A stretch of DNA of 64,000 nt from a virus (taxonomy: Duplodnaviria; Heunggongvirae; Uroviricota; Caudoviricetes), in IMG/VR virus record IMGVR_UViG_2513237251_000009. One strand, 5' to 3'. Below are positions 1 to 51,047 of this stretch, in pieces. Position numbers and translations under genes: made by a program. The notes under the pieces are model-generated. The model saw nothing but the letters and a program-made list of their open reading frames with translations. It was not told the DNA's origin and made no database searches. The first letter of the stretch is position 1. Each line of letters opens with the position of its first letter.

Positions 1-122
1 CCCGTGCCGTTTTTCAGTCATAAAAAAACCCGCAAAAAGCGGGCTCTTTCAAATGTCCATGTCTGCTATTCGCCTCGCGGTACAGCTTTGCGAAGCTTAC
101 CGGAATTGAAGCAGTTTTTACG

Positions 123-678
123 TCAAAAAGCAATAACTTTTTTCTCTATACCAAAAGCCATAACCATTGGTTTGTACAAAATAAATTCTGCCACCTTTAG
201 CCAATGCTCAATGCGTCTTTCACAGGTTCTTAAACTCCATTCCGGATGTGCATCATTCAGCAATTCAGCCATTTTGCGCTTAGTCATCCCCCGCCCCACA
301 TAACGCTGACTCAGAACATTGAGCAGCCCGGGATAACCTGCCAGTACTTCACCAATAACCCTATCGATTATTAACGCCTCTGAATCGGTACAATGTGCCA
401 GCCAGCTTTTTTGATTGCCGTTGATCATATCCCGCAAAAAAGCCTCAAGTTCAGGTTTGTCCAGACCCGCTTTTTTCATCCTCCGGAGCGCCTCGTTAAT
501 TGCCGTTTTTGTCAGCTTTTTAGAGGTCAGTAATTGGTTGAACATATTTCCCGTCTTACCGTCGCCAATATACGACCAACGCCCCCACATACGCAGTTTC
601 CCCTGGATCCAGACACTTTCCAGCGTTTTCAGGCGTAAATGCTCACCGCTTTTGCCTGTAATTTCCGGGTATATCATA
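123..678 (-). CDS. Putative late antiterminator Q-like protein
   Basis: ORF track 123..689 starts at GTG; first ATG at 676-678. Sits just downstream of rusA at the entry to the late operon; WGxW-containing region resembles recalled QuuD-type Q proteins. Confidence 0.5.
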
Positions 679-739
679 TTTATGCTCACTCACTTTCAAT
701 TTTGTAAATCTTCACGCCCAGCCGCCCACCAGAAACGAG

Positions 740-1045
740 CTAGCCGCGCACAATATTGATTTCATCAAACTGCTCGTCGTCTATGAGAAGTCCGGCATGC
801 GTCAGCGCATCCAGTGGTGCTTTCAGGATATTGTCCAGGTCACGACGGCGCTTATCCGGTGGCTCTGCAATAATCTTTATCGCCAGCCTTCCGGACAGGT
901 TTAATTTCAGCCGCTGCTGGCGAACAATAAGTGCCACATCCCGGCGATAACGCTCACCGGCTTTTGATACAAAATATGTGCTGCCACGACGTCGCCAGTA
1001 GGTGTTCACCGTCGGCGGGTAAGGCAAAACAAACTCTATACGCAT
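740..1045 (-). CDS. rusA: RusA-family Holliday junction resolvase, C-terminally truncated by a nonsense codon
   Basis: MRIEFVLPYPPTVNTYW...RRRDLDNILK matches the RusA family; 101 aa versus 119 aa for the copy at 50688..51047; TAG at 740-742 where the other copy reads CAG. Confidence 0.8.
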   Translation of the reverse strand: MRIEFVLPYPPTVNTYWRRRGSTYFVSKAGERYRRDVALIVRQQRLKLNLSGRLAIKIIAEPPDKRRRDLDNILKAPLDALTHAGLLIDDEQFDEINIVRG

Positions 1046-1057
1046 CAGTAACCTCTT

Positions 1058-2107
1058 TTACCCGAGCACGCCGGTTGCAAAGGCGTGATCAAGAAAACGA
1101 AAAATTAAATCAACCTGGGAACCATGCTTTTCTTCGAACGCCAGCGGATCCGCATGAAGCTCGTTGTGATGCTCCCGACACAGCGGTAGCGTGAAAATAT
1201 CGTGGGATTTTGTTCCCATTCCGCCCTGACCATGACCAATCAGATGATGAGGATCGTCCGCTGGCTTACCACAACACGCACACGGCTGTGTCTTTACCCA
1301 GCGTGTGTATTTCTCATTTACCCAGCGGCGACGTTTAGGTCGTTTCATGAAGGATTCCGGAGACTCCGGATCAACGGCAATGCTGACCACCGTCTTTTCC
1401 TGTGGTGGGTTCTGTTGCTGGTGGGTGTGAGGCGGTAGCGCAATATTTTTTGTGCGCTGCTTCAGTATGCTGGTGGCGGTCTGTTCTCCCGGTATGATGT
1501 CGCTTTCACGGTATACGGAGCGGATTTTTTCCGCCGGTAATCCCAGAGAGCGACGCGATACTGCCTCAGGTAATGCGTCCACCACCTGATTGCAGACTGC
1601 CCACCAGGATAATTCAGCCAGCGATAATTCCCGCTCCTGCGTGCCATTCATTACATGGCGTATGACGTCAATCATCCAGGCTGTCAGATTTTGTTGAGTA
1701 AGTTGCTCAAGTGATTCGGAGGTCTGGTCGCGCAGCTGGTTGTCGCAGTGCCAGCACAACACCATTGCGCCAGCACCGTAACTGTGAATAACGGTTTCGC
1801 TGTGATGATAATCGCCGTGTGGCCACTGGCAGGATTTCACGTGACGTAATAACCAGTCAGACAGTGCACCAGCGCCGCCAGCTGCACGAATCACCCGCTC
1901 ATCGCTGAAAAATGGCAGCAGTGATTTATCTTCCGCCAGCGGCTGGCGAACAGCAGGAACCGCTCCAGATGGCAGCGCCCGCATGTTTTTCGGTTCCGGC
2001 TCCACCAGCACCCTGCCGCGATGAAAAACTGGCAATGATTCACGACCGGGCTTAAGGACCACCAGCCCGAGTTCCGGAACCAGAACAGGTCGAAGTAATA
2101 CCCGCAC
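1058..2107 (-). CDS. DUF968/YdfU-like nin-region protein with C-terminal Cys/His HNH-like motif
   Basis: ORF track 1058..2161; start set at GTG 2105-2107 by analogy with the paralog 51060..52109; CACCGK...HHLIGHG...CREHHNELH motif. Confidence 0.6.
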   Translation of the reverse strand: MRVLLRPVLVPELGLVVLKPGRESLPVFHRGRVLVEPEPKNMRALPSGAVPAVRQPLAEDKSLLPFFSDERVIRAAGGAGALSDWLLRHVKSCQWPHGDYHHSETVIHSYGAGAMVLCWHCDNQLRDQTSESLEQLTQQNLTAWMIDVIRHVMNGTQERELSLAELSWWAVCNQVVDALPEAVSRRSLGLPAEKIRSVYRESDIIPGEQTATSILKQRTKNIALPPHTHQQQNPPQEKTVVSIAVDPESPESFMKRPKRRRWVNEKYTRWVKTQPCACCGKPADDPHHLIGHGQGGMGTKSHDIFTLPLCREHHNELHADPLAFEEKHGSQVDLIFRFLDHAFATGVLG

Positions 2108-2108
2108 A

Positions 2109-2381
2109 TTACCTCCAGACGCGCTGACGGTAGCAGGCATGTGTCCGTGGCAGATGTGCACGAACAGGAAGATATACAGAAACGGTCCAGGTCAGACGAT
2201 CAGCGTTCAGACTCCGCTCCACACGGACACCGCGACGCAGATACGCCTCTTGAAGCATATCTGCCTCATCGATCGTACAGAACAGATAGTGAAACCAGCC
2301 ATACTGAGGCGCACGAAAACGCCTCCCCTGCTTAATTTCCGGGTCGGCTTCAGAATTGTGGGATTTTATGTGTTGTGTCAT
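2109..2381 (-). CDS. Hypothetical nin-region protein
   Basis: 90-aa ORF abutting the DUF968 gene; C-terminal ...RQRVWR shared with the 119-aa ORF at 52111..52470. Confidence 0.4.
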   Translation of the reverse strand: MTQHIKSHNSEADPEIKQGRRFRAPQYGWFHYLFCTIDEADMLQEAYLRRGVRVERSLNADRLTWTVSVYLPVRAHLPRTHACYRQRVWR

Positions 2382-2461
2382 CGGATTCTCCGGTGACAGC
2401 AGGTGTCAGTTGTTCAGGCTGACTGCGCGAATTGTAAGGCAATACGCCGGAATGTACAAAC

Positions 2462-2492
2462 AGAAAACCCGTCAGTAAGACGGGCTTAACAA
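2462..2492 (-). terminator. Rho-independent terminator downstream of the YgiW-family gene
   Basis: Hairpin CCCGTCTTACTGACGGG followed by a T-run on the minus strand. Confidence 0.5.
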
Positions 2493-2502
2493 GCAGGGGC
2501 GG

Positions 2503-2847
2503 TTACTTTAATAATTTCAGTGCCTTTACATCAACTTCAACACTGCTCAGGTCTTTATCAATTTCACCCTCAATTCTTACTTTGTCTTTCGGAGAAACAT
2601 TCTGCCCGGCCCATACGCTGTCATCAATATCCGTGACAATTGTCCCGCTATTGTCACGAAACTCATAACGTTCATCACCCACTTTTTTAACGATGCTCCC
2701 TTCAAGGATAACCCATGCATCATCCTTCAGTTCTTTTGCCTGCGCTACTGTTGAACGCTCTGCTTCTGGCCCCTGGAAACCACCCTGCTGTGCAAAAGCG
2801 CCAAAAGACACACCGGAAATAAGTGCTGCAATCAATACCTTTTTCAT
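2503..2847 (-). CDS. YgiW/YdeI (BOF, OB-fold) family periplasmic stress protein; moron
   Basis: Signal peptide MKKVLIAALISGVSFGAFA, then the pattern recalled for YgiW-family proteins (TVAQAKELKDDAWVILEGSIVKKVGDERYEFRDNSGTI); own terminator; no equivalent in prophage 2. Confidence 0.8.
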   Translation of the reverse strand: MKKVLIAALISGVSFGAFAQQGGFQGPEAERSTVAQAKELKDDAWVILEGSIVKKVGDERYEFRDNSGTIVTDIDDSVWAGQNVSPKDKVRIEGEIDKDLSSVEVDVKALKLLK

Positions 2848-2966
2848 TCATAGTCCTCTTTCAGAGATGAACATTCAAACAGCATTTTCAGTATGGTAAA
2901 GCGCGGGTGCGTTGAGGATGCCTGACACATCAGAGGTGGCGGGAGATTACTCCCCCGCCTGGTCTC

Positions 2967-3122
2967 TTACTTCTCAGATTCGTAGTCTACGAAGACAGCG
3001 ACCTCCGTCTGACCGGTTCGGATTCGCACCTCGCAGAGGTCTTTCCTCGTTACCAGTGCCGTCACTATGACGGTTAAACAGATGACGATCAGGGCGATTA
3101 ACATCGCCTTTTGCTGCTTCAT
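2967..3122 (-). CDS. Hok/Gef-family type I toxin, hokD-like
   Basis: MKQQKAMLIALIVICLTVIVTALVTRKDLCEVRIRTGQTEVAVF... (51 aa from ATG 3120-3122); the ORF-track 70-aa frame includes the upstream mok-like extension. Confidence 0.85.
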   Translation of the reverse strand: MKQQKAMLIALIVICLTVIVTALVTRKDLCEVRIRTGQTEVAVFVDYESEK

Positions 3123-3400
3123 AGCCTGCTTCTCCTTGCCTTTCGGCACGTAAGAGGCTAACCTACATGTGTTCAGCATGGATTGAGCCTCAGATTAATG
3201 TTAAGCGTCTTGCAGGACGCGTAATGTTAACTGGGGCTTTTCTCTATCTGCCGTTGGTGTTCATGCCCGAGGCAGATAGCCTCAAGCACCCGCAGCAATT
3301 CTACTTAACTATCCTTTTCCCGCAAACCGTTTTTATCCCCAGCGGCAAATCGAATACACCACCAGCGCCACCGCCATCGCAATTCCTACCGTTGTGAATG
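3123..3400 (-). promoter_or_regulatory. hok mRNA leader with mok overlap and expected sok antisense region
   Basis: About 400 bp conserved at nucleotide level with 52713..52950 in prophage 2; plus-strand ORFs here are taken as non-coding structure. Confidence 0.5.
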
Positions 3401-45949: not shown

Positions 45950-46156
45950 TTACTCTCCCCGCGCCGCCTTACGCCGGTCTTCTTTAATCTTGAAATACAG
46001 GTTCGTCAGATATGTCAGCAGCCCAAACAGCAGACTCCCCAGCACGCCTATCGCCACCCACTGGGACGGAGAGACTTTGTCCAGCAGCTGCAGTAACCAG
46101 TATCCCGTCCCCACCGCTGACGTGGTGTATGACACACCTGTTGTGATTTTTTCCAT
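45950..46156 (-). CDS. Class II holin (S21-like pinholin)
   Basis: 68 aa with two transmembrane segments and C-terminal ...[17 protein letters not shown] as recalled for S21/EssD. Confidence 0.85.
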
Positions 46157-46604: not shown

Positions 46605-48455
46605 TTATGCTGCCGGTGCATTTATCTCCAGCACCAGACTTTCTATCTCAACGCCATACGCTGCATTTTTTGTAACATCCGTCAGCGTCAGCGCATTCAG
46701 TCCCAGTGTCAGACTGTCTTTTATAACCTGGAATGCCGGGCCAGCCACTCCATTCAGTTTCGGAGTAACCGTGGCACTGCCGGCGGTGAACACCAGCTCC
46801 AGCGTCTGCCAGTCGTTACCGTAATCGCCGAACTCCCCCAGCTTCGTGTTTCCGGCTTTCCTGTGATGCATCAGATTCACTCTGCCGTCAGTGGTCTGAG
46901 TAAAGTACGACATCAGGAACGGATTACCGGTACCCGTCATCGCCACACCATCAGGAACGGGAGCATCCGTATACAGATAAATCCCCAGCCCGAACTGATT
47001 GTTGGTCAGCGCGCCTGACAGGCGGAACTTACAGGTCAGTCTGCCGCCCTGTGTCAGCAGGGTAATTGCGTCATCCACCGGATGCGTCAGGGACCAGGTT
47101 TTATTGCTCTGCCTGGTGATCTTAAATACACCATCTGACAACTGAATTCCGCCATCCTTAATGCTCCAGCCCTGCGCAGCAGCCTCTCCGGCTGCCGGCA
47201 GCAGGGAGATTGTGCGAACGGACGTATCTGCAGACGGACCCGATGGCGTGTTGCCGCCGGGCGAGGGTTTGATTTCCGGTGCCTTACCACTGATGAAGGC
47301 TGAGGTGCGCCCGGCTGCGTTCAGAATAGCGGTTGCCAGACGATCCGGAATAATGCTCCTGCGCGCCCATGAACTGAAATGTGTCGGGCGGTTTGATGAT
47401 ACCTGGTTTCCATTCGTTCTCGATGCCGCACCGTAATATCCTGATGCCGGAATATCCGGATCTTCTGCCGGCGCGTTAGTGGCGGTATTGACGCCGTTAC
47501 CGTCTGTCATGAAGGGCACAAAATAAACGCCCTCACTCTCCCTGTTTTTATACCCGCCGTACACGGTGTCGTACTGGGTAGCGTATGTATTTTTCCAGTA
47601 ATACGTCGTGTCACCACAAATCCACGGCACATCTGCAGCACTGCCACCATGGCACTGCGCGTTAAACACGGAGAGGTCAGCACGAAACTGTGCCAGCATG
47701 GCTGTAAACAGCGCAGGTTGCTGTGCGTGGGTGGCGGCGCTCATGTCAAACTCTCCCTGCATCCAGCAGACGGCCAGCAGAACGTTTTTGGGATTTTTCT
47801 GCAATGCCGCTTTTGTGCGGGAAATCAGATCCTGATATAACGGCTTGCCCACCCCCCAGCGTGCCGAATCCTGGCTGGCCCCCGTGGACTCGCTGAATGT
47901 CCCCTCCGCGCCCTGGGTAAATGCCGAACCACCACGACAGCATGGTACCAGCAGGATCCCCGCGTTATTCGGGATATACGGGAGCAGTTTTTTGGCAATA
48001 TGTAACCCCTGGCCGACACAGCCGTACTGCCCTTTGCTCAGGTCTGCCTTCGGATGATTCAGCGTACTCATATCCTGCACATCATGCAGGCAGTGGTCGG
48101 CCGGAATAATATCGTTATATCTGCAGGCAGCCCCACCCGGCGTCACTGTACTGCGGCGCGCCAGCTGTTTAATGCGCGGATCCGGAGCATCGTATGAATC
48201 CGGCAGCGGAAGCCCTTCACCGTAAGCCATGGCATTGGACTGCCCGGCCAGTACGATGACGTAGTACCAATCCGGCTCAGTTGCACCACTGACCACCACA
48301 TCACCTTCTGCTGTAATCGCCTGCATCAGGGTATAAGGGGTTATGGCCACCGGACTACCAAACGGCTGCCAGCCCTCTTTCAGTTTGTGTGTCAGCTTTT
48401 CCGCAAGGTCTGACGGCGACGCCGCCCTGACAACATCATAATGTTTAATCGACAT
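46605..48455 (-). CDS. Prophage sialate O-acetylesterase, NanS-p-like
   Basis: 616-aa protein with an SGNH-like N-terminal region; position between the tRNA/cargo slot and the lysis genes as in Stx phages. Confidence 0.75.
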   Translation of the reverse strand: MSIKHYDVVRAASPSDLAEKLTHKLKEGWQPFGSPVAITPYTLMQAITAEGDVVVSGATEPDWYYVIVLAGQSNAMAYGEGLPLPDSYDAPDPRIKQLARRSTVTPGGAACRYNDIIPADHCLHDVQDMSTLNHPKADLSKGQYGCVGQGLHIAKKLLPYIPNNAGILLVPCCRGGSAFTQGAEGTFSESTGASQDSARWGVGKPLYQDLISRTKAALQKNPKNVLLAVCWMQGEFDMSAATHAQQPALFTAMLAQFRADLSVFNAQCHGGSAADVPWICGDTTYYWKNTYATQYDTVYGGYKNRESEGVYFVPFMTDGNGVNTATNAPAEDPDIPASGYYGAASRTNGNQVSSNRPTHFSSWARRSIIPDRLATAILNAAGRTSAFISGKAPEIKPSPGGNTPSGPSADTSVRTISLLPAAGEAAAQGWSIKDGGIQLSDGVFKITRQSNKTWSLTHPVDDAITLLTQGGRLTCKFRLSGALTNNQFGLGIYLYTDAPVPDGVAMTGTGNPFLMSYFTQTTDGRVNLMHHRKAGNTKLGEFGDYGNDWQTLELVFTAGSATVTPKLNGVAGPAFQVIKDSLTLGLNALTLTDVTKNAAYGVEIESLVLEINAPAA

Positions 48456-48769
48456 CGAATTTCTCCCGTGTACAGGAACAGAGTTAAAAAGCCGGAACCG
48501 GAATCAAATCACAGGATGACCATCTGCCAGTGGCTGGTCGTAAAAAAAAGGCCGCGCCATGCGCAGCCGGAAATAAAGGGATAACGATGATAGTTTGAGA
48601 AAAACAGAAATAACACTTTTGTGGCAAAGCATGGTGCCGGGTGCCTCCCGGTGAATTCAGTACCAGCACCTGAATCCGCGATTATCCCATATACCTTCTT
48701 GCTGATCGCCCCTCCGCACAGGGGGATTCACCATGCAGAAGTGTTTTTAATAAACAGCAAACAAAAAAA

Positions 48770-48937
48770 TCAAGCATTATGCAGGCTGTTTCTTTTTATC
48801 ACCGGCCACAGCAATACCACAATGCCGCAGACCAGCACCCCATCCGCCAGCACCGACATGATTCTGCTGGTGAAATCCACCATCACCACCAGAAACAGCA
48901 GGAGTGCAGCCACAGTCAGGCGCAGTTTTACCGTCAC
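48770..48937 (-). CDS. Small two-helix membrane protein, translationally coupled to the TerB-like gene
   Basis: GTG start overlaps the upstream TGA (GTGA) with GGAGAA Shine-Dalgarno; MTVKLRLTVAALLLFLVVMVDFTSRIMSVLADGVLVCGIVVLLWPVIKRNSLHNA. Confidence 0.45.
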   Translation of the reverse strand: MTVKLRLTVAALLLFLVVMVDFTSRIMSVLADGVLVCGIVVLLWPVIKRNSLHNA

Positions 48938-49366
48938 AGGTGATTCTCCAGACGAAGACCCAGAACACCGGCAATCTCTTCCAGCACCTTGCGCTCTTCC
49001 GGCTCAATTTCGCCGTCTGCCTCCGCAATGGCCACCGCCACATCCAGCACATCTTCCGCTTCACGCGTATCGTGTTTCACATCCTCGATCTCACGTAACG
49101 CCGCACGACGACCAGTTTTAAAGTTCGTATCCAGCTGACCGATAATGGTTGCGCTAATCGCATTAATTTCTGACGTAAACGCGGACAGCGCAGGCTGATT
49201 ACGCAGTACCTGTTCGATCTTCGCTTTCTCGGATGCCTCACATTCACCATCTGCACAGGCCACCAGGTATGCGGCGTTAATCACCACCTGTGCCAGATCG
49301 CGTTTTTCAAACTTTTTAATTTCCGTTGCCGCTCTGCGGGCTTTTTTTACCAAAAATACCAAACAT
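48934..49366 (-). CDS. TerB-family (tellurite-resistance TerB-like) protein, split by a frameshift in an A7 run
   Basis: ATG 49364-49366 gives MFGIFGKK; the long frame 48934..49395 carries two TerB-like A.ADGE...EE repeats; removing one A from the A7 run at 49342-49348 joins them. Confidence 0.6.
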
Positions 49367-49448
49367 CGTGACGTTCCTTTGGGTGGGTGAGCCAACGCCC
49401 GGGAGCGATCTGCCCACAGAGAAAGTCACACTGACCACTCCGTAAGCT

Positions 49449-49461
49449 CCCCCCCCCCCCC
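49449..49461. repeat. Poly-C homopolymer tract (13 nt) upstream of the TerB-like gene
   Basis: Thirteen consecutive C on the plus strand, read directly from the sequence. Confidence 0.9.
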
Positions 49462-49541
49462 GAAAGGCTCTGTGGTTGGTATGTGCCGGGCGTGGCGCAG
49501 ATACAAAAAAGGCCCGCAAAAGCGAGCCGGGAAAATAAGTG

Positions 49542-49618
49542 TGGCGCGTTGTACTGGAGTCGAACCAGTGACCGATTGCTTAGAAGGCAATTGCTCTGTC
49601 CTGCTGAGCTAAAAACGC
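49542..49618 (-). tRNA. argO: tRNA-Arg (anticodon UCU)
   Basis: Cloverleaf with acceptor GCGTTTT/ACAACGC, anticodon loop CTTCTAA, T-arm GGTTCGACTCC, CCA end; gene name by analogy to the Stx-phage ileZ-argN-argO cluster. Confidence 0.8.
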
Positions 49619-49631
49619 AGAATACCGATAA

Positions 49632-49708
49632 TGGACCGCCATCGGAGACTCGAACCCCGCGAAACCAGCTTCGAAGGCTGGCGTTCTATCCCGATGAGCT
49701 AATGGCGG
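49632..49708 (-). tRNA. argN: tRNA-Arg (anticodon UCG)
   Basis: Acceptor CCGCCAT/ATGGCGG, anticodon loop CTTCGAA, T-loop TTCGAGT, CCA end. Confidence 0.75.
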
Positions 49709-49715
49709 TATGTGA

Positions 49716-49791
49716 TGGTGGCCCTTGCTGGATTTGAACCAGCGGCCTGGCGATTATGAGTCGCTCGCTCTCACCACTGAGCTAAAGGGCC
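49716..49791 (-). tRNA. ileZ: tRNA-Ile2-like (anticodon CAU)
   Basis: GGCCCTTTAGCTCAGTGGTGAGAGC...CTCATAA...GGTTCAAATCCAGCAAGGGCCACCA closely resembles recalled E. coli tRNA-Ile2; tRNA-Met not excluded from sequence alone. Confidence 0.75.
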
Positions 49792-50001
49792 GGGCGCAGG
49801 ATAATAACGTTACGAAATCAATGTTGCAAGCATTCAAGAATCACCTGGTTAAAAATTACCCTTACTTCCTCCACCAGCGCATTCACCATGTCTATCCGAG
49901 ATAAGTGGCACAAAAAAACCCGCTTGTGGGCGGGTTTTGTTTGCTTTTGCCATCACGTACAAAATCGGCAAAATATCAGATTTGCATGAAATATATGCCT
50001 T

Positions 50002-50691
50002 TCAATCTACTTTTGCAACACTTTGCTTTGAAAATGCCGCCTTTTGTTTTGAACGCGTTCTCATTACAAACAATAAAGCCTCACTATCCAGTCGGTGAAA
50101 AATGTGTTTCATTGCAACCCAGTGACGAGTAAATGTTTTGGACCAGTTTTTAGTTGTCACTCCCACCAGTAATGCCAGCTCCTTGTATTCATAACCTTCC
50201 CCACCAAAAAGTTCTGCTTTTACTGCCTGCGCCGCCAGCCAGATTAATTTTTTCAGGCGTTCCTGCGTTTTCCCTGCAATTTTTCTGGTACCGGATTGAG
50301 TATTAAATTCATTCCACGCCCACTGTGTTATCGCGATCTGATATTCCCAACAAATACTCCCGCTGTAACACCACAACAACCAGGCTTTATGATGTTCTTC
50401 AAGAGACAGAACAGCCCGCCGCCACGATGATGTCGAAAACTCAACCGGACTGACCAGAGGAATTGACGTCACCTTCGCCAGCGATTGCTTTCCCGGGATT
50501 GGTGGATTATCCCGCGTTATCATTTTTCCAGTCACTTCATCGCGGTACCGGATTTTTTTTCGCCTGTAACGCCCTGTATCGAACATGGCATTCTCCTGCC
50601 AGGCTTCAAGCTGACCTTTTGTTGCCCCACTCAAATCAGCGGTGGCGATAATGAGCTGCTCACGCACAAACTGTAAATAGTGGTTATTCAT
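50002..50691 (-). CDS. Putative late antiterminator Q-like protein (position-based)
   Basis: ORF track 50002..50697 (GTG); ATG 50689-50691 overlaps the rusA stop; immediately upstream of the tRNA cluster; family not recognised from sequence. Confidence 0.45.
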   Translation of the reverse strand: MNNHYLQFVREQLIIATADLSGATKGQLEAWQENAMFDTGRYRRKKIRYRDEVTGKMITRDNPPIPGKQSLAKVTSIPLVSPVEFSTSSWRRAVLSLEEHHKAWLLWCYSGSICWEYQIAITQWAWNEFNTQSGTRKIAGKTQERLKKLIWLAAQAVKAELFGGEGYEYKELALLVGVTTKNWSKTFTRHWVAMKHIFHRLDSEALLFVMRTRSKQKAAFSKQSVAKVD

Positions 50692-51047
50692 GCGCACTCC
50701 AGTTCTGTGATTTTTATCCCCAGCCGCTCACCAGGAACGAGCTGACCGCGCACAATATTGATTTCATCAAACTGCTCGTCGTCTATGAGAAGTCCGGCAT
50801 GCGTCAGCACATCCAGTGGTGCTTTCAGGATATTGTCCAGGTCACGACGGCGCTTATCCGGTGGCTCTGCAATAATCTTTATCACCAGCCTTCCGGACAG
50901 GTTTAATTTCAGCCGCTGCTGGCGAACAATAAGTGCCACATCCCGGCGATAACGCTCACCGGCTTTTGATACAAAATATGTGCTGCCACGACGTCGCCAG
51001 TAGGTGTTCACCGTCGGCGGGTAAGGCAAAACAAACTCTATACGCAT
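50688..51047 (-). CDS. rusA: RusA Holliday junction resolvase (full length)
   Basis: 119 aa; MRIEFVLPYPPTVNTYW...RRRDLDNILK...ITELECA. Confidence 0.9.
   Translation of the reverse strand: MRIEFVLPYPPTVNTYWRRRGSTYFVSKAGERYRRDVALIVRQQRLKLNLSGRLVIKIIAEPPDKRRRDLDNILKAPLDVLTHAGLLIDDEQFDEINIVRGQLVPGERLGIKITELECA

Follow-up and report, generated by a model that had tools for sequence, protein, structure and literature searches.

The window, the whole 64,000-nucleotide stretch of DNA that was analysed, is prophage Sp12 of E. coli O157:H7 Sakai, in which the late genes lie on the minus strand. Read in that direction, the gene for the late antiterminator Q is followed by a phage tRNA cluster, a pair of small genes (tciA and tciB), the gene for a SASA/nanS-like esterase and the holin gene (Table 1). 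The promoter found at the 3' end of Q and the hairpin beyond it would act as pR' and tR' by analogy with the annotation of 933W.

Table 1. Features in and around the tciAB cassette of Sp12, with positions in the window.
Feature	Position	Strand	Basis or annotation
Late antiterminator Q	50002..50697	-	Pfam Phage_antiter_Q PF06323, E=7e-92; annotated ECs_2267
pR'-like sigma-70 promoter, 3' end of Q	49990..50018	-	TTGCAA-17-TATATT (consensus scan)
Hairpin, tR'-like	near 49915-49940	-	beyond the pR'-like promoter; Rfam leader/IsrK-type matches sub-threshold only
pT-like promoter of the tRNA cluster	49801-49829	-	promoter scan
Phage tRNA cluster ileZ(CAT)-argN(TCG)-argO(TCT)	49542..49791	-	ARAGORN, Rfam; tRNA-Ile/Arg/Arg
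Intrinsic terminator after the tRNA cluster, left edge of the cargo slot	49511..49528	-	GGCTCGCTTTTGCGGGCC then TTTTTT
Conserved tciAB leader, ~127 nt, predicted long irregular hairpin	49367..49493	-	belongs to the cassette
Ancestral tciA start, now a 16-codon ORF, MFGIFGKKSPQSGNGN*	49316..49366	-	ATG at 49366, Shine-Dalgarno AAGGAA 7 nt upstream
A7 run, one-base insertion relative to intact A6 alleles	49342..49348	-	alignment with JLK-2012 (A6) and other intact alleles
tciA, TerB-family protein, as annotated	48934..49362	-	142 aa, TTG start, +1 frame; ECs_2265, WP_001303509.1
tciB, DUF3927 small membrane protein	48770..48937	-	55 aa, GTG start; Pfam DUF3927; ECs_5733, WP_000216653.1
STnc100-family sRNA element (homologue of the EcOnc04/EcOnc27 class)	48593..48765	-	Rfam RF02076, 101.8 bits against a gathering score of 47
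Intrinsic terminator 3' of the sRNA element, 5' of the esterase gene	48550..48568	-	GGCTGCGCATGGCGCGGCC then TTTTTTTT
nanS-p-like sialate O-acetylesterase (DUF1737 + SASA + DUF6645)	46605..48455	-	Pfam; annotated SASA family carbohydrate esterase

The position of the pair is defined by comparison with 933W. The stretch containing the pT-like promoter, the tRNAs and the terminator that follows them is 92% identical to 933W, where the homologous terminator is annotated as the 'terminator upstream of the stx genes' and is followed by stx2AB. Homology to 933W stops at ~49494 and returns at ~48754. An STnc100-type element is also found 3' of stx2B in 933W and 3' of tciB in JLK-2012, Evi and PPyecE, which places the element in the phage backbone, outside the tciAB cassette; Tree et al., in their Hfq-CLIP study, count the region 5' of ECs2262 among the EcOnc04 homologues. 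On this comparison the leader, tciA and tciB form a self-contained cassette in the late operon, located exactly at the stx2AB site of 933W. A sequence-only reading of this DNA had placed the pair in the slot used for stx, between the phage tRNA cluster and the esterase gene, and the flanks common to the two phages agree with that placement. The slot and its surroundings (pR'/Q, pT-ileZ-argN-argO, terminator, cargo, STnc100/EcOnc27-type sRNA, nanS-p esterase and lysis genes) are the same as those of the stxAB cassette, but the tciAB cargo is unrelated to stxAB in sequence and function and brings its own conserved leader.

TciA is an all-helical cytoplasmic protein of the TerB family. The open reading frame at 48934-49395 on the minus strand matches the Pfam TerB profile (PF05099) over profile positions 7-109 of 118 with an E-value of 7.7e-14 (52.4 bits, cut-off 24.4), and the tciA product matches the solved structure of Klebsiella TerB (PDB 2JXU) over residues 15-137 (E=2.9e-7) and the tellurite-resistance family phrog_632 over its full length (E=2.5e-68). 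Both acidic motifs, ACADGECEASEK and AEADGEIEPEER, are present. Membership in the TerB family had been proposed from these two ADG..E-type repeats and is confirmed by the profile search and the 2JXU match, and the predicted structure is in keeping with it. The AF2 model of the annotated 142-residue ORF has seven helices (pLDDT 82), and its best Foldseek matches are the TerB-like 2h5n (probability 1.0, TM 0.55-0.62) and 2ou3, a 'tellurite resistance protein', with weak E-values of 0.01 to 1. The C-terminal half of TciA resembles DjlA weakly but specifically (NCBIfam PRK09430, E=4.7e-7, far under the family cut-off).

TciA and the TerB proteins of the terZABCDEF operons (IncHI2 R478, the O157 TAI island, 2JXU) belong to the same Pfam family, can be aligned over ~120 residues and share both ADG..E motifs. 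TciA differs in that it occurs without the other ter genes and in that its partner is a DUF3927 protein of 55 residues and not the multi-pass TerC. None of terC, terD, terE or terZ was found among the neighbours of tciA in the window, which are Q, the tRNAs, the DUF3927 gene, the sRNA and the esterase gene, and a tellurite phenotype is not expected from TerB alone. With the membrane co-chaperone DjlA, whose TerB-like domain is N-terminal, TciA shares the concept of a TerB-like domain at the inner membrane, but TciA has neither a J domain nor a covalent membrane anchor, and the separate TciB would serve as the anchor.

TciB is a DUF3927 protein of ~55 residues with two hydrophobic segments. The product matches Pfam DUF3927 (PF13064) over profile positions 2-50 of 53 with an E-value of 3.3e-17 (62.6 bits against a cut-off of 25) and the 'TciB-like' family phrog_1470 over positions 1-54 of 54 (E=5.6e-30). 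Its hydropathy plot has two hydrophobic peaks with a conserved DFTS(R/K) break between them and basic residues at both ends, and alignment with TciB of P1 and others gives the conserved motif VDFTS..S.L.DG.LV....WP..K. The minus strand at the junction of the two genes reads ...CTGGAGAATCACCTGTGACGGTA..., in which the TGA of tciA and the GTG of tciB share the four bases GTGA, with a GGAG 8 nt before the GTG. The profile match, the hydropathy peaks, the overlap and the GGAG together bear out the small membrane protein coupled to tciA that had been proposed. A natural fusion of the two proteins (ORF P0012) was modelled with AF2, the homologues of each half being supplied unpaired; the TciB part was predicted as one long helix of low confidence (pLDDT 49-68) and no interpretable docking was obtained. 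This fusion and four others (P0065, P0251, P0263 and P0289) were considered as Rosetta-stone evidence and rejected as frameshift or assembly chimeras.

The sequence-only reading knew of no description of the pair as a unit, and on this point it was mistaken. By homology, the Sp12 pair is the lambdoid version of tciA/tciB of phage P1, which is already named and annotated. The P1 genes belong to a tciA-tciB-tciC operon that was reportedly described by Lobocka et al. The names tciA and tciB are already used for phage JLK-2012 and in PHROGs (phrog_632 and phrog_1470), the Sakai record describes ECs_2265 as 'TciA/TerB-like protein', and PGAP assigns the two genes to the 'TerB family' and the 'DUF3927 family'. 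The same reading had allowed that the pair might be an already characterised, annotated module; the annotation exists in P1, JLK-2012, PHROGs and the Sakai record, and the characterisation does not stand, as the literature on tciA/tciB, DUF3927, ECs2265 and phage-encoded TerB yielded naming and distribution and no functional data.

Identity to P1 is about 40% over the full length of TciA and about 58% over the core of TciB. The Sp12 and P1 versions share full-length homology of TciA, the VDFTS...DG.LV...WP core of TciB, a stop/start overlap and adjoining tRNA genes. They differ in that the P1 genes belong to the ban operon, which is early and under C1 control, and follow its C1-operated promoters, whereas those of Sp12 lie in the Q-dependent late operon, and in that tciA of Sp12 is frameshifted. 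No homologue of tciC, which in P1 encodes a single-pass membrane protein of 35 residues, was found downstream of Sp12 tciB, where the STnc100-type element occupies the space; the sole candidate is a dissimilar 31-residue ORF within the sRNA element. TciA peptides have been detected in P1 virion preparations derived from lysates (PMC9024508), the tciABC genes of P1 are non-essential by CRISPRi (PMC10695390), and one P1-like subgroup lacks them in about half of its members (PMC9603915).

Distant relatives were sought by tblastn against INPHARED and with a purpose-built TciB HMM. The pair was found in P1 and further temperate phages as well as in virulent N4-like phages (Schitoviridae) and Erwinia jumbo phages (PMC4319500; PMC3728262). 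The TciB HMM places the partner directly 3' of tciA in P1, LMessi, Sp12/JLK, the N4-like phage Pollock and the Erwinia jumbo phage Caitlin, and the genes overlap in P1 (TGATG), LMessi (GTGA) and Sp12/JLK (GTGA). The surroundings vary: the pair lies among early/middle genes by the dUTPase gene in N4-like phages, at the genome end by tRNAs in jumbo phages, and between Q and the holin/endolysin genes in LMessi and the lambdoids. TerB-like genes without TciB are found in Vibrio, Pseudomonas and Sinorhizobium phages and TciB without TciA is found in phage 434, so the partnership is not obligatory. The adjacency and the start/stop overlap conserved across very different phages support a functional unit of tciA and tciB, in agreement with the earlier proposal that the two genes belong together.

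Alleles whose coding sequences have a pS of about 0.23 share an almost unchanged leader. A hairpin structure is plausible: the minimum free energy z-score is -2.8 (G5TG form), and RNAalifold on nine distinct sequences predicts a long hairpin of 35 pairs, 1 of them compensatory. Within the leader, the poly-G tract at 49449-49461 is hypervariable, with runs of 6 to 14 G among copies that encode identical TciA. A coding leader, as an in-frame upstream extension (as in P0008) or as the 67-residue ORF at 49316-49519, was rejected because the length of the G run shifts the frame between strains. The leader matched no Rfam family, a consensus scan, which is a crude one, detected no sigma-70 promoter in it, and no sRNA in the tciA leader is listed among the entries considered from the Hfq-CLIP table of Tree et al. 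Because no promoter of its own was detectable and intrinsic terminators lie on both sides of the cassette, tciAB would be transcribed by Q-antiterminated read-through from pR'.

The state of tciA in Sp12 is determined by a run of A residues. Intact relatives (JLK-2012, Evi, PPyecE, 99-3311 and Sp11) have A6 or AAAAAGAAAA at this position and a 143-residue ORF that starts at the ATG (MFGIF..). The run of Sp12 has one additional base, which confirms the frameshift reported earlier, and because of the extra A the ATG at 49366 now opens an ORF of 16 codons. The long ORF of Sp12 lies in the +1 frame relative to this ATG, and annotation starts it at the TTG of 49362. The best match was the exact A7 80-mer in 553 complete E. 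coli genome records and the A6 form with identical flanks in only 4. Alleles were compared in the 80 closest IMG/VR E. coli prophage copies, a similarity-ranked and non-independent sample in which 76 copies could be scored: 28 were intact with A6, 16 had A7 only, 30 had A7 and a stop at codon 45, and 2 had A6 and a stop. A nonsense codon is therefore present in 30 of the 46 A7 alleles and in 2 of the 30 A6 alleles (Fisher p = 2e-7, on non-independent copies). The pN/pS ratio, computed on the same non-independent copies, is 0.05 for intact, 0.15 for A7 alleles and about 1 for those with A7 and the stop. A7 alleles also have changes at residues that are invariant elsewhere (ADG to AEG), and one allele breaks the A run (AAAGAAA) yet retains the frameshift. 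In Sp12 itself tciB is intact despite the frameshift in tciA, and the neighbouring prophage Sp11 of the same genome carries an intact tciAB paralogue.

Expression of the TerB-like gene had been suggested to be off, phase-variable or mis-assembled. The first of these is the likely one, as off or strongly reduced; phase variation and misassembly do not agree with an A7 that is fixed in the complete genomes. Phase variation or programmed frameshifting at the A run is also disfavoured by the accumulation of nonsense codons in A7 alleles and by the interrupted run. It is most likely that tciA of Sp12 is off or strongly reduced and is becoming a pseudogene; the gene is probably decaying because so many of the A7 alleles in the IMG/VR sample have a nonsense codon as well. 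Full-length TciA could be made from Sp12 only from the poorly placed TTG or through a rare +1 slip at the A run, in translation or in transcription, and such slippage would restore the exact ancestral protein.

The A7 allele might on the other hand be a functional variant, with TciA made from the TTG or by programmed +1 or transcriptional slippage, and we consider this doubtful. All O157 copies examined keep the 142-codon ORF open, the exact Sp12 protein is present in 2138 blocks of the sequence collection, and both RefSeq and PGAP keep the gene, the latter with the TTG start. By direct reading, a +1 slip on A AAA AAA GCC gives the exact ancestral sequence, and the N-terminus in the TTG frame, MVFLVKK, retains a hydrophobic-then-basic character. 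Against a functional variant are the strong ATG with a well-spaced Shine-Dalgarno sequence located 4 nt upstream in the other frame, the excess of nonsense codons among A7 alleles, the raised pN/pS with substituted invariant residues and the frameshift kept behind an interrupted run; a stimulatory element is not evident.

Taken as a whole, we think it reasonably probable that the lambdoid tciAB cassette of Sp12 is a TciB-tethered module for lytic growth in which tciA is off or strongly reduced. In such a module TciB would be a cytoplasm-in/cytoplasm-in helical hairpin that holds TciA at the inner membrane, on the model of TerB with the membrane protein TerC or of the TerB-like domain of DjlA beside its membrane anchor. 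During lytic growth the complex would probably work on the physiology of the envelope or membrane, and candidate roles are the protection of membrane integrity and the exclusion of superinfecting phages or pore-forming colicins, which would echo the phenotypes of ter operons. A role in the lytic cycle is suggested because virulent Schitoviridae and jumbo phages carry the pair, the ban promoters lie upstream of it in P1, and TciA peptides were detected in virion preparations from P1 lysates; a host-side suicide role is less likely. A wider version of this proposal would make tciAB a general phage-borne membrane module for lytic growth in temperate and virulent enterobacterial phages, with a TerB-like sensor on a DUF3927 hairpin that protects the membrane or excludes competitors, serving in lambdoids as an alternative payload to Shiga toxin under Q, its output tuned by the hypermutable poly-G tract (6-14 G) of the structured leader and, in phages of the O157 lineage, by a leaky A7 slippage site. 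In this full form it seems to us improbable.

Other functions can be proposed for the pair. As cargo for lysogenic conversion, tciAB would be expressed from the resident prophage and would confer resistance to tellurite or colicins, or phage exclusion, as the ter operons of plasmids and islands do. The homology of TciA to TerB of terZABCDEF, whose phenotypes are resistance to tellurite, phages and pore-forming colicins (PMC4319500, PMC11652158), the moron-like position between intrinsic terminators and the identity of the slot with that of stx are in its favour. It is nevertheless unlikely, as the consensus scan detected no promoter in the conserved leader, no other ter genes are nearby, O157 has a complete ter island already (PMC2241611), phages that cannot lysogenise conserve the pair as well, and the Sp12 copy is frameshifted.

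A resemblance to abortive-infection modules had also been noted. In such a module the membrane protein would depolarise the cell and the TerB-like protein would sense or restrain it, as in a toxin-antitoxin-like defence system. TerB domains occur in conflict systems, as Anantharaman et al. reportedly described in 2012, and the tight coupling of a small protein to a tiny membrane protein fits such a module. The comparison with PADLOC-DB, in which TciA gives a marginal match of 35 residues to the candidate PDC-S48 (E=0.006) and TciB gives none, does not support the resemblance, and the presence of the pair in obligately lytic phages, both N4-like and jumbo, argues against it. Knock-downs in P1 gave no phenotype (PMC10695390). 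Intact tciB stands beside a doubly disrupted tciA in all 30 A7+stop alleles and is solitary in phage 434, and a toxin that needs its partner fits poorly because tciB persists with a disrupted or absent tciA. We regard a defence module of this kind as very improbable. The pair could instead be an accessory of lysis timing, a membrane module that acts with the downstream holin cassette, as its location between Q and the holin/endolysin genes in lambdoids and LMessi might suggest, but the P1 copy is in the ban operon, distant from the lysis genes, and the copies of N4-like and jumbo phages lie by the dUTPase gene and at the genome end, respectively; of all the functions considered here we find this one the hardest to credit.

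The cargo in the stx slot of Sp12 is an annotated and widespread phage gene pair and not a new system, and this copy is probably disabled. The pair has borne a name taken from homology for two decades; since P1-like, lambdoid, N4-like and jumbo phages all keep the two genes coupled, it would be a sensible subject for simple genetics. O157 holds natural alleles of tciA side by side, intact in Sp11 and frameshifted in Sp12.

The late region of the Sakai prophage Sp12 runs on the minus strand from Q through three tRNAs, tciA, tciB and an esterase to a holin. An 841-bp stretch around tciAB is 100% identical to Sakai NC_002695.2 2239780-2240620, which is within the annotated 'prophage Sp12, lambda-like phage'. 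In the 933W record the order is Q, pR', qut, terminators, pT, ileZ-argN-argO, a 'terminator upstream of the stx genes', stxA2, stxB2, SASA esterase, S and R. When the two late regions were compared by BLAST, Sp12 was 92% identical to 933W from the pT promoter to the post-tRNA terminator (window 49829-49494), no match to the 933W stretch was found over the cargo, and weak homology resumed at 48754 in the sRNA element and continued through the esterase and holin. Since 933W matches the flanks and nothing across the cargo, the leader, tciA and tciB (about 48755-49493) are a clean replacement of stx2AB, and the sequence-only reading was correct in placing the pair in the stx slot.

Features of the Sp12 late region (window coordinates)
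Feature	Position	Strand	Evidence
Q antiterminator	50002-50697	minus	Pfam Phage_antiter_Q, E=7e-92
pR'-like promoter, end of Q	50018-49990	minus	consensus scan
pT-like promoter, before tRNAs	49829-49801	minus	consensus scan
tRNA-Ile(CAT), tRNA-Arg(TCG), tRNA-Arg(TCT)	49542-49791	minus	
Intrinsic terminator after tRNAs	49528-49511	minus	consensus scan
Leader, post-tRNA terminator to tciA ATG	49367-49493	minus	
tciA ORF	48934-49395	minus	Pfam TerB, 52.4 bits (cut-off 24.4)
tciB ORF, 55 aa	48770-48937	minus	Pfam DUF3927, 62.6 bits (cut-off 25)
STnc100-family sRNA, full-length, directly downstream of tciB stop	48593-48765	minus	Rfam RF02076, 101.8 bits (gathering score 47)
Terminator after sRNA element	48568-48550	minus	consensus scan
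DUF1737-SASA-DUF6645 esterase	46605-48455	minus	
Holin	45950-46156	minus	

TciA is a TerB-family protein, as had been proposed from its two repeats. In addition to the Pfam match, the ORF aligns with the solved Klebsiella TerB 2JXU over about 120 residues (E=2.9e-7) and both acidic ADG..E motifs are found. Structure prediction agrees with this assignment, as the AlphaFold model (26 homologues) is all-helical with a mean pLDDT of 82 and the PDB structures closest to it, 2h5n and 2ou3, are both TerB-like. TciA has neither a signal peptide nor a TM segment, and it resembles DjlA weakly, at E=4.7e-7 and well short of the family cut-off. Since Sp12 tciA has no further ter gene nearby, it is outside any ter operon.

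TciB is a member of the DUF3927/TciB family, a small family of 60 representative clusters (E<=1e-3, among 1.84 billion representatives), all of which are stand-alone proteins of about 50-60 aa. Two segments of TciB, at about residues 7-20 and 26-47, are hydrophobic; a conserved DFTS(R/K) lies between them and each end has basic residues, a layout that would fit an in-in hairpin. The translational coupling and Shine-Dalgarno described earlier can be read directly from the minus strand: tciA ends CTG GAG AAT CAC CTG TGA and tciB starts GTG ACG GTA, so that stop and start share GTGA, with GGAG 8 nt upstream of the GTG. The TerB and DUF3927 matches together with this overlap are far beyond chance.

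Of 50,697 phage records searched by tblastn, 131 have a TciA-like gene and 34 a TciB-like one. TciA is followed directly by TciB in P1, P7 and the P1-like SJ46, in lambdoid or Q-bearing temperate phages (JLK-2012, PPyecE, Evi, LMessi and Klebsiella prophage-like phages), in virulent N4-like Schitoviridae (Pollock, FSL SP-058, FSL SP-076, Shigella B2 and others) and in 240-kb Erwinia jumbo phages (Caitlin gp5/gp6). An HMM made from TciB sequences picks out the partner 3' of tciA in P1, LMessi, Pollock and Caitlin, and none beside TerB in Vibrio K479, Pseudomonas PMBT3 and Sinorhizobium phiM5. The stop/start overlap recurs as TGATG in P1 and GTGA in LMessi and Sp12. By this comparative evidence the two genes form a unit, as had been suggested. 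The partnership is not obligatory, since phage 434 has TciB without TciA. In Pollock, a group I intron (2259-2611 of its locus; Rfam RF00028, 101 bits) is present about 450 nt downstream of the pair. Unrelated phages also have tRNA genes beside tciAB: P1 has trnA and trnT on the upstream side and trnI(CAT) just after the pair, JLK-2012 has Asn-Thr-Gly, Sp12 and Sp11 have Ile(CAT)/Arg, and Caitlin has Trp/Cys. This association may be mere accessory-gene clustering.

The claim that the pair had not been described as a unit is not supported. The tci names come from phage P1, where tciA, tciB and tciC are one operon, and the JLK-2012 homologues are annotated tciA and tciB. The Sakai record labels ECs_2265 'TciA/TerB-like protein', PGAP uses 'tellurite resistance TerB family protein' for tciA and 'DUF3927 family protein' for tciB, and in PHROGs each protein has a full-length family, phrog_632 ('tellurite resistance') for TciA and, for TciB, phrog_1470 ('TciB-like inhibition of cell division or resistance to colicin'). 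The object is thus already known, as the genes, their pairing and this exact copy were all annotated earlier. P1 TciA and the Sp12 protein share about 40% identity and the P1 start, MLGILKKK, resembles the MFGIF(G/K)KK of intact alleles; P1 TciB has the same core motif, VDFTS..S.L.DG.LV....WP..K. The Sp12 pair is a P1-type tci pair without tciC. In P1 the tci genes are non-essential by CRISPRi (PMC10695390), form a variable region absent from nearly half of one P1-like subgroup (PMC9603915), and have yielded TciA peptides in virion preparations (PMC9024508). No functional experiment on phage tciA or tciB was found in the literature searched.

In alleles with A6 or AAAAAGAAAA, tciA starts at an ATG (window 49366) with a good Shine-Dalgarno and encodes 143 aa. 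Sp12 and EDL933 have A7 (window 49342-49348) where JLK-2012 has A6. With A7 the ATG frame stops after 16 codons and the remaining ORF is in the +1 frame; Sakai and PGAP place the start of the gene at a TTG that follows the ATG by 4 nt (MVFLVKK..., 142 aa). The frameshift that had been noted is therefore real. The accompanying suggestions of mis-assembly and phase variation are not supported. An 80-mer with A7 is the exact best match in 553 records of complete genomes and its A6 version the best match in 4, counts that show A7 is not an assembly error and give no sign of phase variation at the run. Meaningful full-length expression from the A7 allele is unlikely. Leaky expression may occur, since the Sp12 ORF in O157 has no second lesion and the exact ancestral protein would be restored by +1 slippage on A AAA AAA GCC or if transcription dropped one A.

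Sakai also carries an intact copy. The Sp11 locus (NC_002695.2 2188886-2189481), which lies some 1.6 kb outside the window on its left, has the pair between the tRNAs and the esterase as in Sp12, behind a G5TG leader. Its tciA, ECs_2190, encodes 143 aa from an ATG, has AAAAAGAAAA in place of the A run and is identical to the Sp12 protein from residue 10 on; its tciB is ECs_5731. Sakai thus holds one intact and one frameshifted tciA.

Of the 80 prophage copies in IMG/VR most similar to the window protein, 76 had a recognisable start and were scored: 28 were A6 and full length, 16 had A7 only, 30 had A7 with an in-frame nonsense codon (E to stop, codon 45), and two had A6 with the codon-45 stop. 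A7 and nonsense are associated (Fisher p = 2e-7, the copies being non-independent), and the same stop in two A6 alleles suggests recombination or recurrence. In many A7 copies (L034-L066, e.g. L050) the stop is accompanied by a tciB intact at 55 aa, as in 30/30 A7+stop alleles; tciB is also intact in Sp12. Some A7 alleles are altered at family-invariant residues (e.g. ADG to AEG), and in one the run is broken (AAAGAAA) with the frameshifted length retained. Pairwise pN/pS was 0.048 for intact, 0.145 for A7-only and about 1.0 for A7+stop alleles. Together these data are suggestive of relaxed constraint on tciA after the A7 insertion, and only suggestive because an A7 query set the similarity ranking of the sample and pN/pS is inflated by young polymorphism.

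The consensus scan found no promoter in the 127-nt tciA leader, and we infer that tciAB would be expressed mainly by Q-modified read-through, like stx2. Window 49909-50018 is expected to be the pR'-tR' short-transcript region, as in Stx phages; a strong hairpin there (49915-49938, minus), after the pR'-like promoter, has only sub-threshold Rfam matches (IsrK, IsrJ and leader families). The leader is nearly invariant among alleles whose CDS has pS of about 0.23. A long irregular hairpin is predicted for it (z-score -2.8 for the G5TG form; RNAalifold 35 pairs, one compensatory), and it matches no Rfam family. About 83 nt upstream of the ATG is a poly-G tract (49449-49461; poly-C on the plus strand), which is G13 in Sakai, G14 in EDL933 and G11 in Evi; in other genomes with identical TciA it spans G6 to G12 or is G5TG, and the O157-type ones have G6, G10, G11, G12 or G5TG. 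The variation could reflect either a contingency tract or homopolymer sequencing noise.

The STnc100 element is phage backbone and not cargo; it is found 3' of stx2B in 933W and 3' of tciB in JLK-2012, Evi and PPyecE. It is of the EcOnc04/EcOnc27 class of Hfq-bound prophage sRNAs (PMC12711010; bioRxiv 10.64898/2026.05.13.724894). A 31-aa ATG ORF (48682-48777, minus; MLDFFVCCLLKTLLHGESPCAEGRSARRYMG) that overlaps the tciB stop by 8 nt is probably no gene, as it lies inside this element and does not look like P1 TciC. On the plus strand, PGAP has a partial pseudo 'hypothetical protein' at 48432-48575, between this element and the start of the esterase gene; the equivalent place in 933W and PPyecE has the anti-sRNAs AsxR and AgvB on that strand, neither of which was found at threshold in Sp12.

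In the most economical model TciB would be an inner-membrane anchor for TciA, much as TerB probably acts together with TerC, a membrane protein, and as the TerB-like domain of DjlA adjoins its membrane anchor. An AlphaFold prediction of a TciA-TciB fusion ORF modelled the TciB part as one long helix at low confidence and showed no docking. The sequence-only reading had raised abortive infection. Such a host-side role is less likely, as PADLOC gave no real match and the pair is kept by phages that are unable to lysogenise. Lysogenic conversion by tciAB is likewise less likely. A role in lytic growth is favoured, because non-lysogenising phages keep the pair and P1 tciAB sits downstream of the C1-operated ban promoters. 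tciAB would then act in the infected cell during lytic growth, and its output may be membrane or envelope homeostasis, or the exclusion of superinfecting phage or colicins.
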